10,849 bases of DNA from Candidatus Methylomirabilis sp. (lineage in GTDB: Bacteria > Methylomirabilota > Methylomirabilia > Methylomirabilales > Methylomirabilaceae). A model generated the notes under the pieces. The model did not search any database. It had not been told where the DNA came from and saw only the letters and a program-made list of their open reading frames with translations. The stretch lies in assembly GCA_041498975.1 (NCBI GenBank), contig JBGQJI010000082.1:1-10849 (forward strand). The letters are read 5' to 3'. A program made the translations under genes and the position numbers. Below, piece by piece: positions 130-10,849 of this stretch; position 1 is the first letter of the stretch, and each line of letters begins with the position of its first letter.

Positions 130-768
130 CTACTTTCCTGCCTTGCCGAACTTAACGTTGTTGACTGTCCAGATCGCAGACGGTTCGCTCGGTGTCCGTT
201 CCGCGACAATGAACACGAAGGCATCTGTAGCAACTTTCGCGCCCGGATTCGCCGCGAGCATTGCCGCCCAGTTTGCGCGGAATGTAACACCCCCTTCATA
301 GATCCCGCAGGCTGAATCATTGACGATGTCCACGACCCCGTTTTTGCCAGGGCAATAGAAAGTGTCGACGAACGCGTAGAAATCGGTAGCACCATCACCG
401 TTCGTGTCGATCGGAATGTTGTAGCTCAGGTTCCCCGGCTGCGGAGCGATAGTGCCCGTGTAGTGGTACGAAAGCTGAGTGACGTCGGTGAGCAATGCGC
501 CGTACAGGTTGCTGTCGAGCGTGTAAACACCCGCGTAGTCGCCGTTGGGATTGGTGCTGCTAAGGTTGAGTGTCGCTGAACCCTTCGCACCGCTGGAATT
601 AAGCGTGCATGTCCCGCTGAAACCAACGTTGTCGGTGACCCCATCAAAGCATTGGATCTTATTCTGGCCTGGCGCTGTCGAGGGTGCACCCGCGCTGACG
701 GGCATTGGCAATGCCAGCATGACAGCAAGTGCTCCAAATGCGGTTACTGTATACATTAAGTTCTTCAT
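130..768 (-). CDS. Secreted hypothetical protein (212 aa)
   Basis: ATG preceded by a strong RBS (GAAGGAGGAG). The N-terminus looks like a signal peptide (MKNLMYTVTAFGALAVMLALPMPVSA|G). The mature part is Gly/Thr/Asn-rich with four Cys, and a terminator follows. No family recognised. Confidence 0.85.
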   Translation of the reverse strand: MKNLMYTVTAFGALAVMLALPMPVSAGAPSTAPGQNKIQCFDGVTDNVGFSGTCTLNSSGAKGSATLNLSSTNPNGDYAGVYTLDSNLYGALLTDVTQLSYHYTGTIAPQPGNLSYNIPIDTNGDGATDFYAFVDTFYCPGKNGVVDIVNDSACGIYEGGVTFRANWAAMLAANPGAKVATDAFVFIVAERTPSEPSAIWTVNNVKFGKAGK

Positions 769-1434
769 TGAGTTCTCCTCCTTCTTGGTTTCGGCCAGCT
801 CGTTAACACGCTGCTCATTTTCGTGAAACTCCTTGTTAGTGCGACTGTGTTCACGTCAACGCACCAACTGTCGTACTGGCGGACTACGCCTCCTTTCCGC
901 GAGCGACTTCGCCGTGCCGCAACCATCCACACACATAGGGCACGACAATCGCTTGCTTAGGAAACCTTAGGGGAAGCAGTCCAAGACCGTGGCTGGTTTC
1001 GGTATCCCCCCTTCCCGCCTTTTCGGGTCTCACCTCGCTGTCGGTGTCCACGAGCTACGCAAGAATTGTTCCCACACTTTCATCGACCGGATCGGACTCG
1101 CCCAAGCCATAATAGTGGTGAAACATTCGCCAATTCCGCAAGGCCTTAACTGCGATGTCCAGCGGAAGTGCGGTCACCCACAATCGACCTCCCAATGCGA
1201 AGAGGCATGTAACTGTTACACGTCGAACGCCAAAAGTTCATTGCGTGACAGGCGACGGGGACGCTCGACGAAAGCTGACGTGGCCCTGGCCTACCTGCCC
1301 GGCCTTCGCCTAGGATAGGCGGGGCCATGGATCCAGCCGCCAGCGTGCCCTGCGCCCGCTCGCCCCTGCCGCGCAACTCGCCTGCTACAGCGAGTGGGTC
1401 AAGCCAATAACACACTCCTTTCCACTGTCACAGA

Positions 1435-1499
1435 AGTGTAGGTTACAACCACTACTCTGCCGTCTGGGGAGTCCACATTACGGGGGTGTAATCTGCACC
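1435..1499. repeat. Four-arm putative site-specific recombination site 1 (A1 + B1)
   Basis: A1 = AGTGTAGGTTA-CAACCAC-TACTCTGCCGT (1435-1463), 6-bp linker, B1 = AGTCCACATTA-CGGGGGTG-TAATCTGCACC (1470-1499). 18 bp are identical to 6761-6778 and 20 bp are identical to 5354-5373. Confidence 0.75.
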
Positions 1500-1631
1500 C
1501 TTGGGTGCATCCAACCGGCCCTGAAGCGACTGGTCATCTTTCGTCCCTCGCGCATTTGCAGCCAGCTTCCAATGGAGCCGTGTAGAGACCTTGATGGCAC
1601 CACGTCGAGACGGGAACTTGAGCACCCTGGG

Positions 1632-4600
1632 CTAGCGGTAGAGTGACTCGAGCACGTCTTGGTACTTCTCGGCCACCACCTTGCGCTTCAGCTTCAGGGT
1701 GGGGGTGAGCTCCCCGCTCTCCGGGCTGAAGTCAACGGGCAGCACAGCGAACCTCTTGATCTTGGCGTAGGAGGCGAGCTGCGCGTTCGTCTCTTCGATG
1801 GTGCGCCCGACCCGTTCGACCACCTTCGGGTGCGTGGTCAGCTCGGCGTAATCGGTGAAGGGGATCCCATGTTCCCGAGCGAAGATGGCAAGCTCCGCCT
1901 GGTTGACGGGGATCAATGCCACGGGATACGGCCGCCGATCGCCGTAGACCAACACCTGGCTGAAGAAGGGATCGTCCTTGAGGAGATTCTCGATGTGCTG
2001 GGGCGCGATATTCATCCCCCCGGCGGTCACGATCAGATCCTTCTTCCGATCGGTGATGAAGAGGAATCCCTCCTCGTCGATGTGCCCGATGTCCCCGGTG
2101 TGAAACCAGCCATCGGGGTCGAAGGCCTCAGCGGTCGCCTCGGGCTTCTTGAGGTACCCCCGCGTCGCGATGTTGGGGCCCCGGGCGAGGACCTCGCCGT
2201 CTGGGGCAACCCTGAGCTCCACGCCGGGGAGCGCCTGGCCCACGGAGCCGAACTTGAAGTGATCGAGCCGGTTGAAGGTCAGCGCCGGGCAGGTCTCGGT
2301 GAGACCGTAGCCCTCCAGAATGCAAAGGCCGATGGCGTGGAAGAACTCGGCGATCTCCTGGGACAGCGGAGCCCCGCCCGACACCGCAAACCGGAGGCGG
2401 CCCCCCAGGGCGTGGTGCAGCTTCGCAAAGACCAGCGTATGGGCGACCCAGCGCTTCAGCCTGAGTCCACGAGCGATTGGCTTCTTCTCCTGCTCACGCC
2501 CTGACACCTCTCGGCCCACCCCCAGCGCCCAGGAGAAGATCTTCCGTCTGAGAGGCGGGCACGCCTCGACGTTGGCCAGGATCTTGCCGTAGACCTTCTC
2601 GAAGAGGCGGGGGACGCCGAAGATGAAGTGGGGCTTGACCTCTCGGAGGTTGTCGGCCACCTTGTCCAGGTGTTCGGCAAACGCGGTGATGAGCCCGCGA
2701 TGGACCCCGATGAACGACTCGAGCCGCGCGAAGCAATGCGCGAGCGGGAGGAAGAGCAGGTGGACGTCGCCGGGCTTCACTGGGGTGGCCAGGGCCGAGG
2801 CGGTCAGCGCCGCCAGGTGGTTGCCATGGGTCTGCACGACCCCCTTCGGTGACCCCGTAGTCCCGGAGGTGTAGACAATCGTGGCCGGGTCCTCAGGGCG
2901 GATGGCGTTGAGCTGGTCGGCCAGGGCGGTCTTCAGCCTCTCGGCCTCCGCCCGGCCGCGCAGCCGGAGTTCGTCCCAGGTGAGGACCGACGGCTCCTGC
3001 CCCGCGGACCCGTCCATCAGCACGATCTGTTGCAACCGGTCCATCTTCTCCCACATCTCGAGAACCTTGCTCAGCTGGCCTGCGTCCTCGACGATCAGGG
3101 TGCGGGCCTCGGAATCGTTGACGATGTAGGCAATCTGCTCGGGGGGATACGTGGAGTAGATGGGGACCGTGATGGAGCCCGTGGAGAGGATGGCGAAGTC
3201 GGCCTGGACCCACTCGGCGCGGCTCTGCGAGAGGAGGGCCACCGCGTCCCCCGGCTTCCGGCCGACGGTCAGGAGCCCCAGGGCCAGCTCACGGACGATC
3301 TCGCCGACCTCGGCCCAGGTGAGGGTGTGCCACTCGCCGTCTCGCTTGACCATCTGGGCCGGGAGGCTGGGGCTCCGCTCGATCCGGCTCCAAAACATGC
3401 GCCCAAGGCTCTCGTCCCCCTTGAGGCCCTCCGTCTGCTCTGTCGTGACAGGCTCGCTGCTCCAGCGAGCGCCCTGATTCAGCGAGGGAGTCGAGAGACG
3501 GCTGGTCACGCGATGGACTCGGCGCGCGACAGGCTCCAGGGCCGGTCTCGCCAGGCGTGTCTTGGAGCCATGGTGCTCCTCTGTTCGTGGAGTACCGCTC
3601 TTTTTGTTGGTCGGCATGGGCGGGGTCGCTTCCGCGTCAGGGGTCGTGCTTTTGTTTCCCGAGGAGCTCTCCGTGTGCCACCCATCAACACCCGCTTGGG
3701 CTAGAAGGATTAGATTCACTGTCTGTGGCCGACATCCCAAGTGCGGTCTCGGGGCCTCCGACGGGACGCCAGGGTGCACCCTCGGCTCCCCGGGGCGAGG
3801 TGCGAGCGTGCCTCCATTCCGATCCCTTCCGCTCTCGGTGAGCCGGCGAATCACCACGTCCATGTCCGGCGCATTCCAGGCCGCACAACAGGGGATGCCG
3901 CCATTGTAGCCGCGGGGGAAGCGCGGCCACGCCCGGGCTTTCACGCCCACGATGTGGTAGACCGGGACGCCGATGCCGGAGAGGAAAGCAATCTCCTCCG
4001 CGCTCGGCTCAGGGTAGACCTCGTTAAGGAGCGCCAGGCCCTTCCAGAAGAGCCCGAGATAGTCCGAGAGGACGGCCTTCTTGGTCAGGTTGATGACGAT
4101 GGCCGCGGCGCCCTGGAGGTGGCGAGGCCAGGTGGCATGGTTGACTCGCCGCCCCGGCAGGAGGTCGACGACGTAGGTCTCCCGTTGCGCCAGTCGCTCG
4201 GTCAGCCGACGGCCGACGTACCCCTTACCGCCGAGGAGGATGAGCGGGGTCTCCTCTGGCCAGCCGAGTTCCGCGCGAAGTTGCGCCTCGGCCCGGATCA
4301 CCGCTTCGACGGTGACCTCGAGTTCCGGCCCCTCGGTGCGGAGGCCACGGGCCTGGAACAGGCCCGGCAGGATTCCCGCGAAGCTGAGCTGCTCGGCCCG
4401 TAGGAGCTGCCGGAGGCCCTCAGCACGCCGGAGGAGGGCCTCCAGGTGCGGCCGGTTGTAGGTCGGGTCGCCAGGGTGGAAGAAGTCTTCCTCGACGCTC
4501 GAGATGATCGTCATCAGGCCCACCCGGCCGTTCTGCCGGTAGAGGCCGACCAGCCAAGGAGACCAGCGGCAGCGCCGTTGCACCCAACAATAGGTATAGG

Positions 4601-4859
4601 CGTCGGCATAGTCTTGCGTCACCGGATAGGCGACGAAGACGCGCCTGAGGAAGCCGAAGCGACCATTGAGGCGGCCGATCAACCAGAGCAGCGCGTCGTG
4701 GCGGAGGAGAAGGTTCAGCAGGAGCATCCCGAGTCGCCGAAGCTGGGCCGTACGTCCGCCGCGCTCCTGCCCCCTGCTCTCCGAGATCCCTTCTTGCCGG
4801 CCGAGCACCGCTGGCATCGATCTGGCGCCACCTACCGCAAGCGACTCAGCGTCACTCAC
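1632..4859 (-). CDS. fadD: Long-chain-fatty-acid--CoA ligase (about aa 480-1075) joined through a ~140-aa linker to an N-terminal Rossmann-fold NAD(P)-binding-like domain (about aa 40-340)
   Basis: The C-terminal part has AMP-binding/FACL motifs TIVYTSGTTGSPKG, EGYGLTE, GWFHTGDIG, DRKKDLI and ELTPTLKLKR. The N-terminal part has a glycine-rich LILLGGKGYVG motif. The GTG start is preceded by GAGGTGG. The ligase call is solid, but whether the fusion is translated as one protein is uncertain. Confidence 0.85.
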   Translation of the reverse strand: MSDAESLAVGGARSMPAVLGRQEGISESRGQERGGRTAQLRRLGMLLLNLLLRHDALLWLIGRLNGRFGFLRRVFVAYPVTQDYADAYTYCWVQRRCRWSPWLVGLYRQNGRVGLMTIISSVEEDFFHPGDPTYNRPHLEALLRRAEGLRQLLRAEQLSFAGILPGLFQARGLRTEGPELEVTVEAVIRAEAQLRAELGWPEETPLILLGGKGYVGRRLTERLAQRETYVVDLLPGRRVNHATWPRHLQGAAAIVINLTKKAVLSDYLGLFWKGLALLNEVYPEPSAEEIAFLSGIGVPVYHIVGVKARAWPRFPRGYNGGIPCCAAWNAPDMDVVIRRLTESGRDRNGGTLAPRPGEPRVHPGVPSEAPRPHLGCRPQTVNLILLAQAGVDGWHTESSSGNKSTTPDAEATPPMPTNKKSGTPRTEEHHGSKTRLARPALEPVARRVHRVTSRLSTPSLNQGARWSSEPVTTEQTEGLKGDESLGRMFWSRIERSPSLPAQMVKRDGEWHTLTWAEVGEIVRELALGLLTVGRKPGDAVALLSQSRAEWVQADFAILSTGSITVPIYSTYPPEQIAYIVNDSEARTLIVEDAGQLSKVLEMWEKMDRLQQIVLMDGSAGQEPSVLTWDELRLRGRAEAERLKTALADQLNAIRPEDPATIVYTSGTTGSPKGVVQTHGNHLAALTASALATPVKPGDVHLLFLPLAHCFARLESFIGVHRGLITAFAEHLDKVADNLREVKPHFIFGVPRLFEKVYGKILANVEACPPLRRKIFSWALGVGREVSGREQEKKPIARGLRLKRWVAHTLVFAKLHHALGGRLRFAVSGGAPLSQEIAEFFHAIGLCILEGYGLTETCPALTFNRLDHFKFGSVGQALPGVELRVAPDGEVLARGPNIATRGYLKKPEATAEAFDPDGWFHTGDIGHIDEEGFLFITDRKKDLIVTAGGMNIAPQHIENLLKDDPFFSQVLVYGDRRPYPVALIPVNQAELAIFAREHGIPFTDYAELTTHPKVVERVGRTIEETNAQLASYAKIKRFAVLPVDFSPESGELTPTLKLKRKVVAEKYQDVLESLYR

Positions 4860-5033
4860 CTTAGTCCACCTCTACACTTAGCTAGGAACGGGATTCTGGG
4901 TGCTGTGAGGGCACCCCAGCCAGAGAAGGGGAAGCGGGGAGAGCGCGAACCCAGGGCCGAGCAAGCAACCATGCCCGCCGCTCCTTCCTGGAGGGTGGCG
5001 TTTTGGTGGAGGTCGCGTCCCGCTCCTCCTTCC

Positions 5034-5112
5034 TTTGGCAGCCCGGCTGTCAGCCCTTGCGATGCCCTGTGAGGTTGCGTCCCAGCCTCCGGCCGAGTAT
5101 GTGCCGCTACCG
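5034..5112 (-). ncRNA. GEMM-I (c-di-GMP-I / 3',3'-cGAMP) riboswitch-like element, apparently degenerate
   Basis: Minus strand reads CGGCACATACT-CGGCC-GGA-GGCTG-GGACGCAA-CCTCACAGGG...GACAGCCGGGCTGCCAAA. It has the GGGACGCAA and GACAGCCGGGCTGCC hallmarks of GEMM-I RNAs, and GGCA/TGCC can form P1. It lacks the usual AAAC after ATACT and has a 3-nt loop instead of a GNRA tetraloop. It sits in the 5' leader of 1632..4859. Confidence 0.6.
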
Positions 5113-5146
5113 GAAGCGACCTTTGTACTATGGTGCAGAGGTGGTA

Positions 5147-5163
5147 AGCAATTGCTGTGCCAA
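5147..5163 (-). promoter_or_regulatory. Sigma-54 (-24/-12) promoter
   Basis: Minus strand TTGGCAC-AGCAA-TTGCT matches the consensus YTGGCAC-N5-TTGCW. It points toward the riboswitch-like element and the 1075-aa ORF. Confidence 0.75.
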
Positions 5164-5312
5164 GGGTGTCAACAGTTGAGCATCAGAGGCGTAATGGGAG
5201 GGCGAGTGTCGAGGGGGCTGTGACGATAGTGGGAAGATGGGGAAAGCTTCCTCGAGGGCTGGACACGCTTGAAAGGAAATCAGGGGCAGTTGCTAGAACG
5301 TCGTCGGCTGCT

Positions 5313-5378
5313 CGTGCAAATTTCAACTCCTAATCTTCTGTGTCGTTGAGTGAACATTACGGGGGTGTAATCTTCACC
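5313..5378. repeat. Four-arm putative site-specific recombination site 2 (A2 + B2)
   Basis: A2 = CGTGCAAATTT-CAACTCC-TAATCTTCTGT (5313-5341, diverged), 7-bp linker, B2 = AGTGAACATTA-CGGGGGTG-TAATCTTCACC (5349-5378). B2 is 27/30 identical to B1 and the layout matches site 1. Confidence 0.72.
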
Positions 5379-5505
5379 ACACTCGGTGGCAGACGCGGTT
5401 CCCGTGGGGCACTTCGGCCTTGGGCCTTTTAAGGGATCCGAACTCCTCACATTGCTGCTGCGAGGTGAAATTTTGGAAGATTTCGCACTCGATGGGTCGA
5501 AAACT

Positions 5506-5571
5506 TGGGCCTACTATGGGCCTACTGGGCATGTTGCATAAAAAATGGGCTAGGCAAAATCGCCTAACCAA
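5506..5571. repeat. Tandem 10-bp repeat plus hairpin resembling the end of an integrative element
   Basis: TGGGCCTACT occurs twice (5506-5515, 5517-5526), followed by AAAAATGGGCTAGGC-AAAATC-GCCTAACCAATTGAAA (TAGGC/GCCTA stem). Confidence 0.4.
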
Positions 5572-5688
5572 TTGAAAACGCTTGACGTTTCCCGCTTCAT
5601 GTACTCCTCCGCCTGGTCTGTCAGCCCGGCCTGCTCCAGTGCCCGCTGTGCTCCGCTTACACCATCTTCCGAATGTAACCTTGTATAG

Positions 5689-5826
5689 CTACCTCCCCAG
5701 CAATATCAAAAGTCCTGCCACGATCGCCACGACCGCCAGGACTTGGCTGGGAAGTCTCAGATTCACCAGCGATGACAGGCCCGTCAAGATCAACCAGATC
5801 GCTAACACAATAAACCCGATAGACAT
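5689..5826 (-). CDS. Small two-helix membrane protein (45 aa, MSIGFIVLAIWLILTGLSSLVNLRLPSQVLAVVAIVAGLLILLGR)
   Basis: ATG at 5826 with a strong RBS (GAGGAGGAG) and two hydrophobic segments. It is the 3' part of track ORF 5689..6063, whose upstream extension looks non-coding. Confidence 0.75.
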   Translation of the reverse strand: MSIGFIVLAIWLILTGLSSLVNLRLPSQVLAVVAIVAGLLILLGR

Positions 5827-6084
5827 GCTCTCCTCCTCTCGCGGGCACGTATGGCCCGCCGTGTTGATGGAAACTCCTGCAAGACCGCGCGCCAGTACAG
5901 CGCCGTCCTGATCACCTGGAGCAGCGGGGGAAAGAGCGTGTCGGCCGTCCTGATCTCCACCTGCCGCCACTGCAGGTCCGCCTCGCGCAAGTCGTTCACT
6001 GCAATCGGGAGCTGCTGAATCGTGCGCTCGATCCCCTCCTCCGTCATCGGTCTTGTGCCTCATCGCGCCCTGTGCTACCTTCCA

Positions 6085-6495
6085 TCAGCCCGGAGGCGCG
6101 GCCGCCGGTTGGGCCCTCCCCCTGGGCGGTCTGCAGCAGTACGCGGTGCCGCTGCCTGTGAGGCCGCATGTGAGATTCCAGCCGGCGCTTATCGTCTGGA
6201 ACTTCAGCCTACCCAAGACGGGGACGGGTGATGTGGCGCAGGGTACTCTATTACGGCCGAGATCACAGCCCTCGGTTGTCGAGTCGTTCCCGAGTTGGCC
6301 ACTTTGGTTGGAACGCCAGCAGTAGGCGAGTCCCTCCGCAGTGATGGCACACGTGTGATCCTTGCCGACGCTCACCGACAGGAAGGCCGGCGGCTTCGGG
6401 GTCGTATTGGCTGGCGCTGTGTGACCAGTACTGGCGCTAGCAAGTGCCACCGCCGCGGCAAGCAGTAGGAGTGAGGGCCGTCCAATATCACGCAA
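6085..6495 (-). pseudogene. Truncated RCC1-repeat (beta-propeller) secreted protein
   Basis: A signal peptide is followed by RCC1 motifs VSVGKDHTCAITAEGLAYCW(R)SNQSGQLG and ISAGWNLTCGLTGSGTAYC. The pattern breaks off near 6135, within the second repeat, whereas a full propeller has about 7. The conserved CWG is altered to CWR. Confidence 0.7.
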
Positions 6496-6628
6496 GAACC
6501 ACCCTTCAGGTCGTCAGCCGGTGAGAGTCGTCAACTGGGAGCAGTGACCCGATATTACCCCTTTTTCGGGAAGATGGCCAAAATTTCTTTGCTTGGAGGA
6601 TTGGCTGCGACGAGACCCTTCCGGGTCC

Positions 6629-6760
6629 TGTAGTAGCAAAGTAATTCTGTCAGGGGTTAATGGCCATGTGATGCTGTCAGGGTATGGACACCCTAGCCCT
6701 GACGATGAAAGAGCAGCAGCGAGTCGCCGTCATTGAGCGCGTGTTTCGCGGAGAGGCCAC
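6629..6760 (+). mobile_element. Left end and transposase 5' fragment of an IS1202/ISNCY-type insertion sequence
   Basis: Starts with TGT (6629). It has two 22-bp direct repeats 27 bp apart (TAGCAAAGTAATTCTGTCAGGG 6634-6655 and TGGCCATGTGATGCTGTCAGGG 6661-6682, 17/22 identical). ATG 6684 encodes MDTLALTMKEQQRVAVIERVFRGEAT, which resembles the HTH-leading N-terminus of IS1202-group transposases. The frame runs into site A3 and stops at 6777-6779. Confidence 0.65.
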
Positions 6761-6787
6761 TGTAGGTTACAACCACTAACCTGCACT
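6759..6787. repeat. Simple palindromic putative recombination site A3
   Basis: ACTGTAGGTTA-CAACCAC-TAACCTGCACT with near-perfect inverted arms. The spacer is identical to A1. Confidence 0.75.
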
Positions 6788-7023
6788 AAAGATTATGAAC
6801 GCCCGTGCATGTACTTGCGAAACTGGAATGTCATCGCACGCCTTCGACACGCACTTCCACACTCCGAGGCCACTAGGAAGCGTTTACACTTCAAAAGACA
6901 GAGTTCGTTTCGAGTAGAATTTGGCTAGGCTCTGCCACGCATTTGGAGATCGCCTACTGCGCTGCAATGAGAAGTTGGTGTGCCGGGCCGATCTTGGGTA
7001 CAATTCGTTGAGGCGAAAGAGAG

Positions 7024-7485
7024 ATGGCCCCGACACGCCTAATCATCGACACCGACCCCGGCATCGATGATGCTTTGGCGTTGATCCTGGCGTTCGCCTC
7101 TCCGGAACCGCGTGTGGAGGCGATCACCACTGTGGCCGGCAACGTCGAAGCGGAGCTGGCGGCGCGAAACGCCTGCGCGATTCTGGACGTGATCGACCCG
7201 CACCCAAGACCTCCGGTGGCGGTAGGCGCTGGACAGCCTTTGAAAAGGGGGCTTCGCACGGCGCACGAGTACCACGATGAAGACGGATTGGGTGGCCTGT
7301 CACGCTTGAAGACCAGAGAGGGGAAGCCCCGATACCCTGAACCCCACCAAGTCCAGGCACCGAGGAACGCCTCGGGACTGTTCGCCGAGCGGATCGCCGG
7401 ATGCGGGAAGCAGCAGCAAGCCCGACACGGGCGAATCCTTAATCGGTTTCATTGTCCACCCCTCGCATGTGCCATGGTTGCATGA
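7024..7485 (+). pseudogene. Truncated inosine/uridine-preferring nucleoside hydrolase (N-terminal ~125 aa only)
   Basis: Contains the signature IIDTDPGIDDALA, plus ITTVAGNV and H(D)EDGLG. Similarity ends near 7400, before the expected xGPLTN motif. Full-length members are about 310 aa. Confidence 0.75.
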
Positions 7486-7934
7486 GACCAGCGGATGCTA
7501 CGTGAAAAATGCGAAAAGGCAGTCTTGCGGAGAGACACTTGCCAGATTTGAGACGGCTTGGAACACCTATCGTGTAATTCGCTAGACGAAAGAGCGCTAC
7601 TGAACCCGGCGTGGAAAAGCGGACTGAGAGACTTGCTGTATTCCAGTTCGTGACGCGGAGAATAGATATTCTTCACAATAAGTCGAAGATCCCGCAAGGG
7701 GGCGCGAGACAGGAAACATAATATTCAGCGAAGCCCCACCGGTGCTAGATTTAGGGTGATGGTCTAGTTGTGAATGTTACATAATAGGTGAAGTGGAGAG
7801 GATGATTGGCGAGCAGTACACCCCCCCTCAGGCCTGTCAGTGCACGGTGAGTATATTGACAAGGTTCTTGCCAAGTCGTGGTTCGTGCGCAGCAAGGCAT
7901 GCCGACATGCCGCCTCACTGGTGTTTCCGCACGT

Positions 7935-7986
7935 TGTCGCGCTCTTTGGCAGTCATGTCAAGGCTCTCAACGAGCATCAGCTCCTC
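7935..7986 (-). repeat. 52-bp direct repeat, downstream copy (paired with 9201-9252)
   Basis: 42/52 ungapped identity to 9201-9252, with shared core GAGAGCyTTGACATGACTG on the minus strand. Confidence 0.75.
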
Positions 7987-8020
7987 GGTTCAAAAGGCGC
8001 AAAACCTCAAAGCGAGACGC

Positions 8021-9151
8021 CTAGCGCGCGCAGCGGAACCCGATGTCTTGTTCCTGAATATTCGGGGAGGCAGTGCTGCTCACGAAAAAGACTCCGGCGC
8101 CGGTGCCGTCGACCCAGGCGCCGCCCCGACGCAATGCGCCTGGGAGGGAATCGTTGCTGCCCACGTCGCCGATGGCACTGCGATCGTTCCCGAACCCCGC
8201 GGGGAACCAAACGGTGGCGCCGTCCGCTCGAGCGCCCCAGTCGCCCACCCACTCAGAGACATTCCCCACCATGTCGAAGGCCCCCCACTTCGACACGCAG
8301 GCCGAGCGAGAGCCGGTGTTGACCACACCAGTCACAGGGGTGATGTTGCAGTCTGTCGTGAGGTTATCGGTGCCCGGATCGGGAGTGCCAGCTGCCGCCG
8401 CCTGCCACTCCTGGTTAGTCAGGAGGCGCTTGCCGGAGAGCCGGCAGGCCTGCTCGGCTTGGAACCAGGAGGCGCAGGCGCTGGGGAGTATCCCCGGGAT
8501 GGAGACCGCGTAGAGGGGTGCCGTCCAGTTGCCGGTCACGGGGAAGGTCGAGGGGTAATCGGTGTTGCTGCAGGAATTGGTTCCCACGGCGCCCTGCTGC
8601 GTCGCCCCGTCAGTCATCAGGTCGGCCAGGGTCGCCTTGCCGTCCTGCACCATCTTGATCAGGCCTGTCTGCTCCGCCGGGATGGCCCAGACGCTCGCCT
8701 CGTACTTGTCGATGCAGGTCGTACCCGTCAGCACCGAATCAGGTGGGCACGTGATCGGGAACGCGGGCCCGGGAGGGCCAGCCACGCCCTGGGGGCCCGT
8801 GGGACCCTGCGGGCCCTGGACCCCCGCCTGGTTCCAGTCGAGGGGCGTCTCCTTGGCCCCGATACAGGTCTGGCAGGCGCCGACGATGCGGAGCGTGCCC
8901 CTGGCGGGTTCATAACAGGCGTGGATGAGGCTCGTGTCGCAGCCATGGGCCTGGACGAGCAGGGCCGTGCCGCCGACGAGCAGCGCGGTGACGACCGCGG
9001 CAATGAGGCCGGTCACAACATGGGGGGTGACCAGCCCCGTCAGGACGTGCAAAAGACCGCTCCCGTCATTCTCGGCGCCACTGGTGCTCAGTCCCATAGG
9101 GCCGGAGGGGGAAAACCCCACTACGCTCCACAGGAATTTCTTCGCTTTCAT
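8021..9151 (-). CDS. Exported protein with a short collagen-like repeat and a C-terminal FGE-sulfatase/CLec-fold domain (SUMF1/EgtB/PvdO-like, DGR-target-like)
   Basis: RBS GGGGAGG before the ATG. A hydrophobic segment ends in VQA|HG, followed by seven Gly-X-Y triplets (GVQGPQGPTGPQGVAGPPGPA). FGE-type motifs are CIDKYEAS, GKRLLTNQEWQAAA, FDMVGNVSEWV, RGGAW and terminal IGFRCAR. Confidence 0.88.
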   Translation of the reverse strand: MKAKKFLWSVVGFSPSGPMGLSTSGAENDGSGLLHVLTGLVTPHVVTGLIAAVVTALLVGGTALLVQAHGCDTSLIHACYEPARGTLRIVGACQTCIGAKETPLDWNQAGVQGPQGPTGPQGVAGPPGPAFPITCPPDSVLTGTTCIDKYEASVWAIPAEQTGLIKMVQDGKATLADLMTDGATQQGAVGTNSCSNTDYPSTFPVTGNWTAPLYAVSIPGILPSACASWFQAEQACRLSGKRLLTNQEWQAAAAGTPDPGTDNLTTDCNITPVTGVVNTGSRSACVSKWGAFDMVGNVSEWVGDWGARADGATVWFPAGFGNDRSAIGDVGSNDSLPGALRRGGAWVDGTGAGVFFVSSTASPNIQEQDIGFRCAR

Positions 9152-9200
9152 CTGTCTTTCCTCCCCATACCCATAAAATTGTTTAAGGCTCTTCAGATGC

Positions 9201-9252
9201 TGTCGTGCTCATTCCCAGTCATGTCAAAGCTCTCTAAGAACAGCACCTCCTC
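9201..9252 (-). repeat. 52-bp direct repeat, upstream copy (paired with 7935-7986)
   Basis: 42/52 identity to 7935-7986. It lies 50-100 bp upstream of the 9151 start and contains TTGACA. Confidence 0.75.
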
Positions 9253-9325
9253 CATGAGACAATCCTAGGTTTCTGGACTTTTTTCTAGTGTTTCGCCACA
9301 CACTCGTATACTGTCCGGAACATCT

Positions 9326-9748
9326 TCACGGGGTCGCGAAAACGCTTATCGGGCACGCCAAGCGGCTGCGCGCCGTGGCGCCGATGCTGTCGGCAAACGT
9401 CGTGCTCAAGGCACCCGGCCCGTTGCTGGTAGAAGGGAGGATGATGATCGCGCTGAAGAGCGCCGTGGAACCGAACGCCACTCCACTTTGGTCCTGCCGA
9501 AAGCCGATCTGTGTGATCGTCCCGGAGCCGACCTCGGAGGCGCGGTACACCTCTTGGACACGAATGACTTGTGGAGAGACTACACGATAGCCAAAGGGAA
9601 AGGCATTGTTCCTGTTTCCCTCTGCGTTTGTCTGAGCGTTCGGGGCGACCACCTGAACGGTCCCGCCAACTGCAGGGACGACGCTCAGCAACACAGCGAT
9701 GAACCCCAGCCACCCGAGCACCCACCCAGTTCTTGTCGCGCTTCGCAT
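9326..9748 (-). pseudogene. Secreted protein, probably C-terminally truncated
   Basis: ATG at 9748 with RBS GAGGAGGG and a signal peptide (MRSATRTGWVLGWLGFIAVLLSVVPAVG). The mature sequence (APNAQTNAEGNRNNAFPF...QEVYRASE...ITQIGFRQD...LSTTFADSIGA) looks like an extracellular beta-rich domain and becomes non-protein-like near 9380. Confidence 0.55.
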
Positions 9749-9842
9749 GGCCCGTTCCCTCCTCGTTATTGGTCGTACGCGCTCAAGCTTTCTCCCGCAA
9801 GACCACAGAGATGCCCACGACACGAACGCTTCTTCCGGCACT

Positions 9843-9888
9843 AAAACACGAACGCCCTCTCAGGCCGAACGAGACCCGAGGGGGCGTT
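9843..9888 (-). terminator. Terminator/attenuator-like hairpin in the leader of the 9748 gene
   Basis: Minus-strand AACGCCCCCTCGGGTC-TCGTTC-GGCCTGAGAGGGCGTT forms a 16-bp stem with 1 mismatch and 2 G-U pairs, followed by CGTGTTTT. Confidence 0.5.
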
Positions 9889-9973
9889 GCTAGGTAGCGC
9901 GCCGACCGAATTGCAAGGGATGGCGGAAGTCTTATGGTCACCCCGGGTGCATCACGATCACCTATACGGGGCG

Positions 9974-10002
9974 AGCATGTCGACGGCTACCCGGGATGTC
10001 AA
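9974..10002 (-). promoter_or_regulatory. Putative sigma-70 promoter
   Basis: Minus strand TTGACA-N17-CATGCT, about 30 bp inside site A4 and pointing into the module. Confidence 0.5.
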
Positions 10003-10034
10003 GCTTTTTCTGGAACCCCTCCCCCGATCATGGG

Positions 10035-10063
10035 AGTGTAGGTTACAATCACTAATCTACACC
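10035..10063. repeat. Simple palindromic putative recombination site A4
   Basis: AGTGTAGGTTA-CAATCAC-TAATCTACACC, 17/18 identical to the core shared by A1 and A3. Confidence 0.75.
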
Positions 10064-10533
10064 AGCCATGCTATGGCCGACCTGACTAGACAGACCGTGA
10101 GCGATGGAAAGGCAAGAACCGGGGACGGCTCGGTGGGGATTCTGATATGCCACTGCAGCGGGTGTTGTGGCTGTAAAGAATTAGCAGAAATTAGTGGAGC
10201 ACATGTCACAGTGTAAAGAACTCACACGGGCTTTTCGATTTGTGTTCAAGTAGAAGTGATCCAGGGGCGCCACAGGGGTCGGCTGACGGTGCCTCCACGT
10301 TGAACACGGGCACGGTGCCCGTGGCATGGCGACCCGCTGCACCAGGCGCAGGAGGTCCTGCACTACGGGATAGGGCTTCACGACGCAAGCTCCCAGCGCA
10401 CCGCACCTAGGGAATTGGCAAACCCATCACGAGAAATCCGGTACTTAGCCCCTAATTGGTGTCCGGTACCTTTTTGCGCGGGTCCGGGCCGCGGCCTGAC
10501 CATCCACGACGGGGGAGCAACACCACTTCATGC

Positions 10534-10848
10534 TCAGCCGCGGTGTCCCGTAGGATCGTCGGCGGGACAGAGACTCCCCTCCTCGCGTTCCCACTCGAAG
10601 TGACGGCGCGTCCGAAGGACGTAGTCCGCAAGTGGGAAGACCACGTTGAGGTTCTTCGCGTGCATCCGGTGGTGCCCGCGATGGTGAGCATCCAACCACT
10701 GGAAGACCTTGGTCCTTTCGATCCACCGCTTCTTCCGCACGTGCATGCACCAGTGGCCGTACTCATAGAGAAAATAGTAAAGGCCGAGGATCGCCACACC
10801 AGCCCACAGCACTGGCACACCGCTCAGTATCTCCACGCCCCACAACAC
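10534..10848 (-). CDS. Fatty acid hydroxylase / sterol desaturase family protein (C-terminal part; 5' end is outside the window)
   Basis: A hydrophobic helix is followed by His boxes YEYGHWCMH and HHRGHH and a terminal NLNVVFPLADYVLRT motif, typical of the FA_hydroxylase di-metal membrane family. Confidence 0.8.
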   Translation of the reverse strand: MLWGVEILSGVPVLWAGVAILGLYYFLYEYGHWCMHVRKKRWIERTKVFQWLDAHHRGHHRMHAKNLNVVFPLADYVLRTRRHFEWEREEGSLCPADDPTGHRG

Positions 10849-10849
10849 C

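Follow-up and report, generated by a model that had tools for sequence, protein, structure and literature searches.

A candidate site-specific gene-cassette system with its own tyrosine recombinase in Candidatus Methylomirabilis

What are the short palindromic sites that bound the gene modules of a contig from Candidatus (Ca.) Methylomirabilis, a methane-eating bacterium, and which enzyme would act on them? The window analyzed here is the whole of contig C82 (10,849 nucleotides) of the source assembly G000, which comprises 2.68 Mb in 241 contigs and is 85% complete. It carries six sites of two kinds, designated A and B. In all good probability, these are one core site in two spacer classes, served by a single dedicated tyrosine recombinase of ~279 aa, and sites and enzyme very likely form a site-specific cassette system. 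Two systems that gather genes into arrays by site-specific recombination are well described, integrons and dif modules; the one described here falls outside both integrons and XerCD dif modules, though it would work like both. The novelty lies in the system; the recombination chemistry is familiar.

All six sites are found at the positions, with the spacers, and in the single orientation that an earlier sequence-only reading of the window had assigned to them. Site A has a 7-bp spacer with the consensus CAACCAC and site B an 8-bp spacer, CGGGGGTG, and the 11-bp arms of both are close to AGTGTAGATTA and its reverse complement. Arm complementarity at A 1435, B 1470, A 5313, B 5349, A 6759, and A 10035 amounts to 6, 8, 5, 9, 9, and 9 of 11 positions, respectively, so that the A sites at 1435 and 5313 are imperfect. 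A low-threshold matrix rescan of the window shows no seventh site. An arm-only matrix yields 16 matches with scores of >25 in G000 versus none in three shuffles, and the spacer is 7 or 8 bp long in 18 of its 20 best matches. The final matrices, built from G000 sites with the six window sites included, detect 26 sites in G000 (14 A and 12 B), located on 13 of the 241 contigs, versus 1 or 2 in a shuffled genome. This shuffle comparison excludes a chance origin of the sites.

Pattern searches reveal A in 18 and B in 15 of the 20 Ca. Methylomirabilis genomes (0 or 1 with reversed-pattern controls); a stricter B pattern is found in 13 of these 20 genomes and in none of 21 genomes from other families of the order. 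A nonredundant set of 167 sites (86 A and 81 B) was drawn from G000 and 73 loci chosen for holding pattern matches. By the models used, the spacer is 7 bp in the 86 A sites and 8 bp in the 81 B sites; all 167 are intergenic according to the analysis's own gene calls. The nearest cargo-side genes are directed from A toward B in 108 of 115 cases, and neighboring sites are co-oriented in all 80 pairs, which comprise 34 B>A, 20 A>B with a 6- to 7-bp linker, 12 A>A, 8 B>B, 5 long A>B, and 1 that is probably mistyped. Alternating B>A and A>B segments account for 59 of the 80 pairs, and A reads as an inverted B, as anticipated by the suggestion that the modules are bounded by inverted sites in the manner of pdif modules. 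Locus L087 carries A and B sites and encodes a protein that also occurs, with identical sequence, in a genus genome.

Comparison of the flanks points to exchange within the sites. Site pairs that share a single flank outnumber those that share both, 111 (23 + 88) versus 4 for A and 130 (51 + 79) versus 7 for B (descriptive counts, see below), and flank similarity between paired sites stops at the site. Where a pair has the upstream flank in common, identity of the left arm is above the baseline (0.79 versus 0.74 for A and 0.86 versus 0.64 for B) and that of the right arm is at the baseline; pairs sharing the downstream flank show the mirror pattern, with the right arm more alike and the left arm at the baseline. 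Because only the arm on the shared side exceeds the baseline, the crossover appears to fall in the spacer. Among 171 sites, flank sharing is seen in 285 of 14,136 within-class comparisons versus 1 of 28,512 cross-class ones (direct or inverted), so that A and B do not appear to mix. At one orthologous locus of G008, G012, and G019, bounded by genes that are presumably ahcY and metK, the flank is common up to B and again from the first bases of A, and the cargo between B and A differs among the three genomes. The breakpoints between these genomes coincide there with B and A, which had been proposed as a check. The core of the sequence-only reading, tyrosine recombinase core sites bounding exchangeable modules that are no integron, is supported by the reshuffling at the spacer, by the variable cargo of this locus, and by the recombinase gene found between A and B in relatives.

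The position of the break also bears on an alternative modeled on the features of Tn916-, Tn554-, and RIT-style transposons, in which B forms the left and A the right end of a nonautonomous tyrosine recombinase transposon and the 6- to 7-bp linker is the coupling sequence of strand exchange. The variable linkers of the 20 A>B junctions and the 34 B>A spans could be read in this way, as could a Tn554-sized recombinase pair between A and B in L076. However, the linkers stay with the adjacent arms and recur in classes, and when pairs have the flank upstream of A in common, their right-arm identity of 0.63 equals the baseline of 0.63, so the break lies inside A. The candidate recombinase gene is located between A and B, i.e., outside the B-to-A segment; 20 of the 80 neighbor pairs are A>A or B>B; and the L076 pair occurs once and interrupts a SRAP gene. 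Transposon ends are an unlikely explanation. The L076 pair (positions 4522-7958), which consists of tandem tyrosine recombinases of 368 and 659 aa, was rejected as the cognate enzyme on the grounds of its single occurrence and its insertion in the SRAP gene.

The window itself contains no recombinase gene, as had been stated, according to both the list of open reading frames (ORFs) and a profile search. A PF00589 search of G000 gives four matches, namely XerD, XerC, a phage-type integrase, and a fragment. All four are on contigs that have no sites, none adjoins a site, and they were rejected as a nearby cognate enzyme. In G016, a tyrosine recombinase occupies the A-B gap, and close homologs are found in five metagenome loci (L167 to L171). 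A single recombinase gene lies between A and B in all three complete, independent units (L075/L087, L167, and L168). These units are 1047 to 1064 bp long and cease to be homologous within the sites; beyond them, the flanks are mutually unrelated and match those of sites that lack a recombinase, a G000 site among them. Site A precedes the first codon of the recombinase by ~200 bp and B follows the last one by 37 to 48 bp, which places a target site less than 1 kb from the gene. In the partial loci L170 and L171, B is found 37 to 43 bp after the gene; L169 has A upstream of the recombinase and an inverted A-like site downstream.

The recombinase family includes 1166 homologs at E values of ≤1e-20, mostly of 279 aa, and forms one clade with 99/99 support in a 17-sequence tree, with ~27% identity to the host XerC/D. 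Its score against PF00589 is 64 bits (cutoff, 27). In 33 sequences the catalytic R105, K132, H190, R193, and Y226 are invariant and H217 is nearly so; this R-K-H-xx-R-H/W-Y set and the fold are those of the tyrosine recombinase superfamily. Look-ups in ESM Atlas and PHROGs return generic integrase names only. Viral contigs contain three loci with homologs and no exact B matches, and plasmids give no tblastn match to the recombinase at 1e-25.

Among solved structures, those of XerA, XerD, and Brujita Int are nearest, and the fold matches XerA, Cre, and IntI. Like other arm-less single tyrosine recombinases, XerA and Brujita Int among them, the protein has two domains and no arm-binding domain; unlike XerA and Brujita Int (~21% identity), it is mobile, multicopy, and tied to cassette arrays rather than to chromosome resolution or a prophage. 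One enzyme acting at palindromic arms recalls Cre/loxP and engineered recombinase-mediated cassette exchange with heterospecific sites, in which, according to the available part of PMC10250229, the spacer sets direction and partner and two nonmixing sites permit cassette exchange. The differences from Cre/loxP include arms of 11 rather than 13 bp, natural multisite arrays, and an enzyme of ~279 aa with ~16 to 18% identity to Cre in fold matches. The Cre-type combination of 13- to 15-bp arms, an 8-bp spacer, and a Cre-like protein of 300 to 400 aa was not found, and the PDB sequence matches to the recombinase at E values of ≤1e-5 include no Cre chain. SE elements carry two or three recombinase genes, and the same is reported for Tn554-like and RIT elements in the available parts of PMC8138268 and PMC3414803. 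The family shares with all three its occurrence in mobile elements but differs from them in that one gene, rather than a tandem, takes up the entire ~1.05-kb A-to-B unit. The genes that score next best with the family profile (in G251, G253, and G254) are multicopy tandem recombinase genes ~850 bp apart, presumably RIT-like.

Host XerC and XerD could be the enzymes instead, with A and B as divergent pdif-like sites and the recombinase between them as a passenger module. Both proteins are present in G000, the candidate enzyme is not, and the alternating modules and two-step exchange mirror the dif modules described in the accessible part of PMC13141974. The arms also match dif arms at 7 or 8 of 11 positions. 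That count, made for B and Escherichia coli dif in the sequence-only reading, is right, but the four inner bases differ, being ATTA/TAAT in A and B and ATAA/TTAT in dif. Four of the five genus genomes searched have a canonical dif that is separate from A and B, present in single copy, and built around a 6-bp spacer. This probable chromosomal dif has the spacer GAGAGA (L249 1481-1540 in G008; also L247, L250, and L251); it was not found in G000, where it is probably unassembled. As far as the text of PMC13141974 is available, the XerC and XerD arms of pdif sites are distinct and enclose a 6-bp spacer; recombination of dif modules requires matching spacers, and a cointegrate-and-resolution route is proposed for them. 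The A/B sites resemble the pdif modules of Acinetobacter plasmids, as seen in that same part, in their 11-bp arms around a spacer, in the alternation of module types, and in the exchange of single modules by two crossovers at two site pairs. They differ in their near-symmetric arms, fixed 7- and 8-bp spacer classes, sequence distinct from the host dif, chromosomal arrays, and dedicated recombinase gene between the sites; neither a 6-bp spacer nor host-dif-like XerC/XerD arms were found in them. In addition, related sites accompany the candidate recombinase family into other phyla. Use of A and B by XerC/XerD is quite improbable, and given the separate canonical dif of the genus, the enzyme is likely to be the dedicated family.

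Co-oriented cassette arrays, frequent absence of the enzyme nearby, and the use of a tyrosine recombinase are features shared with integrons and attC-site clusters without an integrase (CALINs), as covered by the available part of PMC4889954. In contrast to integrons, the A/B sites consist of 29 to 30 bp of conserved sequence in two classes, and the cassettes apparently have their own promoters. The recombinase scores 33.4 bits against the integron integrase model TIGR02249 (cutoff, 265), and the ~35-residue extra domain of IntI was not found in the 279-aa family. The six site stretches fold with z scores from -1.95 to +1.15, without an A-with-B hairpin; they were rejected as attC, defined in that part of PMC4889954 by long single-strand hairpins bearing R and L boxes, for want of such folding.

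A -35-like box directed into the cargo is found within 70 bp (at 17 to 54 bp) on the upstream side of 33 of the 85 A sites, and at 3 to 6 of 80 to 85 sites for each of the other three flanks. In the window, a strict promoter scan makes no call of A-adjacent -35 boxes, so the cargo promoters are only inferred. The frequent position of A upstream of such a box would also fit palindromes that serve as transcription factor operators. That explanation is very improbable, as the distance from A to the box is not fixed, B sites lie at gene 3' ends, the spacers are conserved and asymmetric, and site positions differ between genomes, with cargo changing at the sites.

In the recombinase-based reading, one monomer would bind each 11-bp arm and strand exchange would occur across the spacer. 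A×A and B×B would recombine and A×B would not, because the spacers are 7 versus 8 bp long and differ in sequence. B-to-A segments would be made up of cargo genes, directed from A to B, with a putative promoter just inside A; A-to-B segments would hold either the recombinase gene or a 6- to 7-bp linker without a gene. A circle consisting of A, recombinase or linker, B, and cargo would integrate at an A or B already in place. Another crossover, now at the site class not used first, would exchange the cargo and could take the recombinase gene away, which would explain orphan arrays. In its two steps, this scheme corresponds to engineered recombinase-mediated cassette exchange (PMC10250229) and to the cointegrate-and-resolution route proposed for dif modules. 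Repeated single integrations would generate arrays such as A-B..A-B..A..A of the window, which might represent two integrations plus debris (the insertion sequence [IS] stub at 6629-6757 and the flank copy at 6788-7343).

Related sites are not confined to the genus. The best 79 of 560 homolog loci, from Syntrophales, Nitrospirota, and others, contain 267 matches with a 7-bp spacer, versus 5 to 14 in shuffles; 250 of the 267 are intergenic (ORFs cover 70%), and 45 of the 79 loci have at least three. A model seeded by A sites, trained on half of the loci, and scored on the rest away from the gene gives 54, 91, and 97 held-out matches versus 6, 4, and 3 in shuffles. Homolog loci have 24 sites per 100 kb; for 13 control stretches chosen away from known matches, the density is 1.9 per 100 kb. 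G255 has 54 pattern matches, and one 24-kb stretch with 23 sites, 20 of them on one strand, brackets 20 single genes, 18 on the majority-site strand; this array contig encodes no family member. The distant spacers vary, with 160 types in 254 sites, and a reversed partner site is often found ~75 to 120 bp off. A duplicated cassette of G255 (99.8% identity) has one end inside a site and the other 28 bp from a site. Exchange at the distant sites is weakly indicated by these sequences.

Several observations weigh against the scheme as a whole. The recombinase is found in 2 of 251 genomes of the phylum, both among the 19 other genomes of the genus, and one of the two is a fragment. It was not found in the incomplete G000 assembly, and the single-contig genome G008 has sites and no recombinase match. 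The site pairs used for the flank-sharing counts are related and nonindependent, and no statistical test is attached to those counts. Five other genomes lack the island at the ahcY/metK-type locus, and filled and empty alleles differ outside the A and B sites, at IS-like ends, so that the platform would arrive by another route. At distant sites, shared blocks end within 10 bp of a site in 13 of 117 cases versus 4.5% expected, a weak excess, and the cargo geometry is different, with the next gene on the strand of the site in 122 cases versus 92. Finally, a search of four contig sets (of 24 runs listed; contigs only) revealed no circle or empty-site junction of the window.

The contigs of these read sets begin at 1469, 5344, and 6778, as repeats would cause. 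Those of run X1 span 1469-5569 without 5793-6516, and no contig joins across, which is no proof either way. Joints of 6787 to 5354/5356 were rejected as window circles; their linkers differ, and other loci are the best explanation for them. Of the two IS-like ends outside the sites, one is presumably IS21-like and the second is another inverted repeat; at the sites themselves flanks are exchanged internally, unlike at IS ends (target duplications, such as those of an IS or a miniature inverted-repeat transposable element, were not searched). A 224-aa gene, presumably FKBP-like, travels with the island outside site A (L072 13166-13840; L281) and has a second copy in G012.

The recombinase gene itself has an unusual structure. 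Among the 13 closest database proteins, 12 are 244 aa long and one is 228 aa, and the 12 that were aligned start at the same position. In all four loci read, an N-terminal frame preceded by a GGAGGT ribosome site is broken at the same A7 run, with the rest in the +1 frame. The ratio of nonsynonymous to synonymous substitutions (dN/dS) is 0.14 to 0.24 in the long frame, with dS up to ~1, and ~0.2 to 0.3 in the short frame in three distant comparisons; three close comparisons have too few changes. The frame break is conserved, and the ratios point to purifying selection on both frames. Recoding at the A7 run is the likely explanation, with a TTG start for the recombinase as the alternative.

On balance, the evidence leans toward a third bacterial gene-cassette system, with a mobile ~279-aa recombinase, double-stranded 29- to 30-bp core sites, and arrays of up to at least 20 self-expressed cassettes in Syntrophales, Nitrospirota, and Ca. 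Methylomirabilis. The enzyme-flanking sites of Methylomirabilis would have split into nonmixing 7- and 8-bp classes, amounting to natural recombinase-mediated cassette exchange, with the enzyme dose limited by a programmed frameshift. If so, the accessory genome of sediment anaerobes would be partly assembled by a route that integron tools overlook, and the system would represent a living intermediate between Xer/dif and integrons, allowing the origin of cassette systems to be tested. An enzyme with two natural nonmixing sites also suggests itself for genome engineering by cassette exchange. Searches of the open-licence literature, as distinct from subscription papers and supplements, turned up no description of the A/B system; the recombinase may possibly stand as an unnamed cluster in the supplement of PMC8138268 or PMC3414803.

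The features of the window are listed in Table 1.

Table 1. Sites, modules, cargo, and debris in the 10,849-nucleotide window
Feature	Positions	Strand	Basis or remark
212-aa secreted-type ORF, cargo of the module ending at A 1435	130..768	-	No Pfam/NCBIfam match
-35-like hexamer TTGACC, directed away from A into cargo; putative promoter	1397..1402	-	Sequence
Site A	1435..1463	+	Spacer CAACCAC
A-to-B linker, 6 bp, commonest linker class, in place of recombinase gene	1464..1469	+	
Site B	1470..1499	+	Spacer CGGGGGTG
Cargo ORF, 1075 aa as longest frame, directed A to B	1632..4859	-	AMP-binding domain
Weak c-di-GMP-I-like leader, unproven, upstream of ligase ORF	5034..5115	-	13.4 bits versus cutoff of 35, E value 5.2
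Site A, degenerate	5313..5341	+	Spacer CAACTCC, 2 changes versus consensus
A-to-B linker, 7 bp	5342..5348	+	
Site B	5349..5378	+	
Truncated start of commonest B-downstream flank (~270 bp if whole)	5379..5404	+	Cluster of 20 B sites
Short hydrophobic ORF (final ~45 codons in a 124-codon frame)	5689..5826	-	No Pfam match
RCC1-repeat gene fragment	6085..6495	-	Profile match
IS left end and first 24 codons (TGT start, internal repeat)	6629..6757	+	Deletion-cut just before A 6759
Site A	6759..6787	+	
Paralog (72%) of flank and 5' part of nucleoside hydrolase gene	6788..7343	+	
Cargo ORF, 376 aa, FGE-sulfatase-like domain	8021..9151	-	Profile match
Secreted-type cargo ORF	9326..9841	-	No profile match
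Conserved ~195-bp noncoding leader, TTGACA at 9997-10002	9843..10034	-	Cluster of 10 A sites
Site A	10035..10063	+	
Recurrent A-downstream outer flank	10064..10248	+	After A sites in L192, L206, and L244

Profile searches agree with the earlier cargo labels of acyl-CoA ligase (AMP-binding), RCC1 fragment, nucleoside hydrolase fragment, and FGE-sulfatase domain. In the first of these, an N-terminal part of no known kind, with 77% nucleotide paralogs on contig C77 of G000 and C293 of G016, is fused to an AMP-binding domain of the acyl-CoA ligase type. The riboswitch predicted upstream of the ligase was not confirmed, as Rfam gives no match at E values of ≤1 apart from a chance-level Leu leader, and the c-di-GMP-I score is far below the cutoff; an Rfam search of six array loci had no matches. 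The block at 6788-10034 had been taken for a single module and is instead a composite of the hydrolase flank copy and cargo. An intact nucleoside hydrolase gene follows an A site on contig C51 of G000, and by its sequence the 6788-7343 segment is a captured outer flank, copied from the chromosome, rather than a cassette. A 52-bp direct repeat (81%) lies on either side of the FGE-domain gene, at 7935-7986 and 9201-9252. A paralogous module (~75%) on contigs C1 and C170 of G000 has the A end alone in common.

The ~195-bp leader is found, with hairpins, just inside many A sites across the genus; it has no Rfam match and might possibly be a regulatory RNA of a new kind. The commonest B-downstream flank carries a degenerate A half-site ~30 bp after B (5379-5404; L008, L066, L069, and L074), and read-set contigs show loose ends at 5404. 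The repeat at 5430-5582 recurs on contigs C196 and C177 of G000 and in other genus genomes. The IS end, presumed to be IS1202-like, recurs at nine loci in six other genomes, several with a longer frame; a termination of the stub by site A 6759 was rejected in favor of the deletion. Of the eight copies of the IS with TGT ends in other genomes (L187 and L227 to L233) whose left flank shows a reversed TTGACA-like box, most lie ~17 to 20 bp from it; the window copy has none. From these flanks, the element looks as if it targets -35 promoter elements.

The outer flank downstream of the last A site is also found after a damaged A on contig C158 of G000. The gene fragment at 10317-10849 has a weak fatty acid hydroxylase match, and copies of it with 86 to 94% identity are found on contig C8 of G000 and in several genus genomes.

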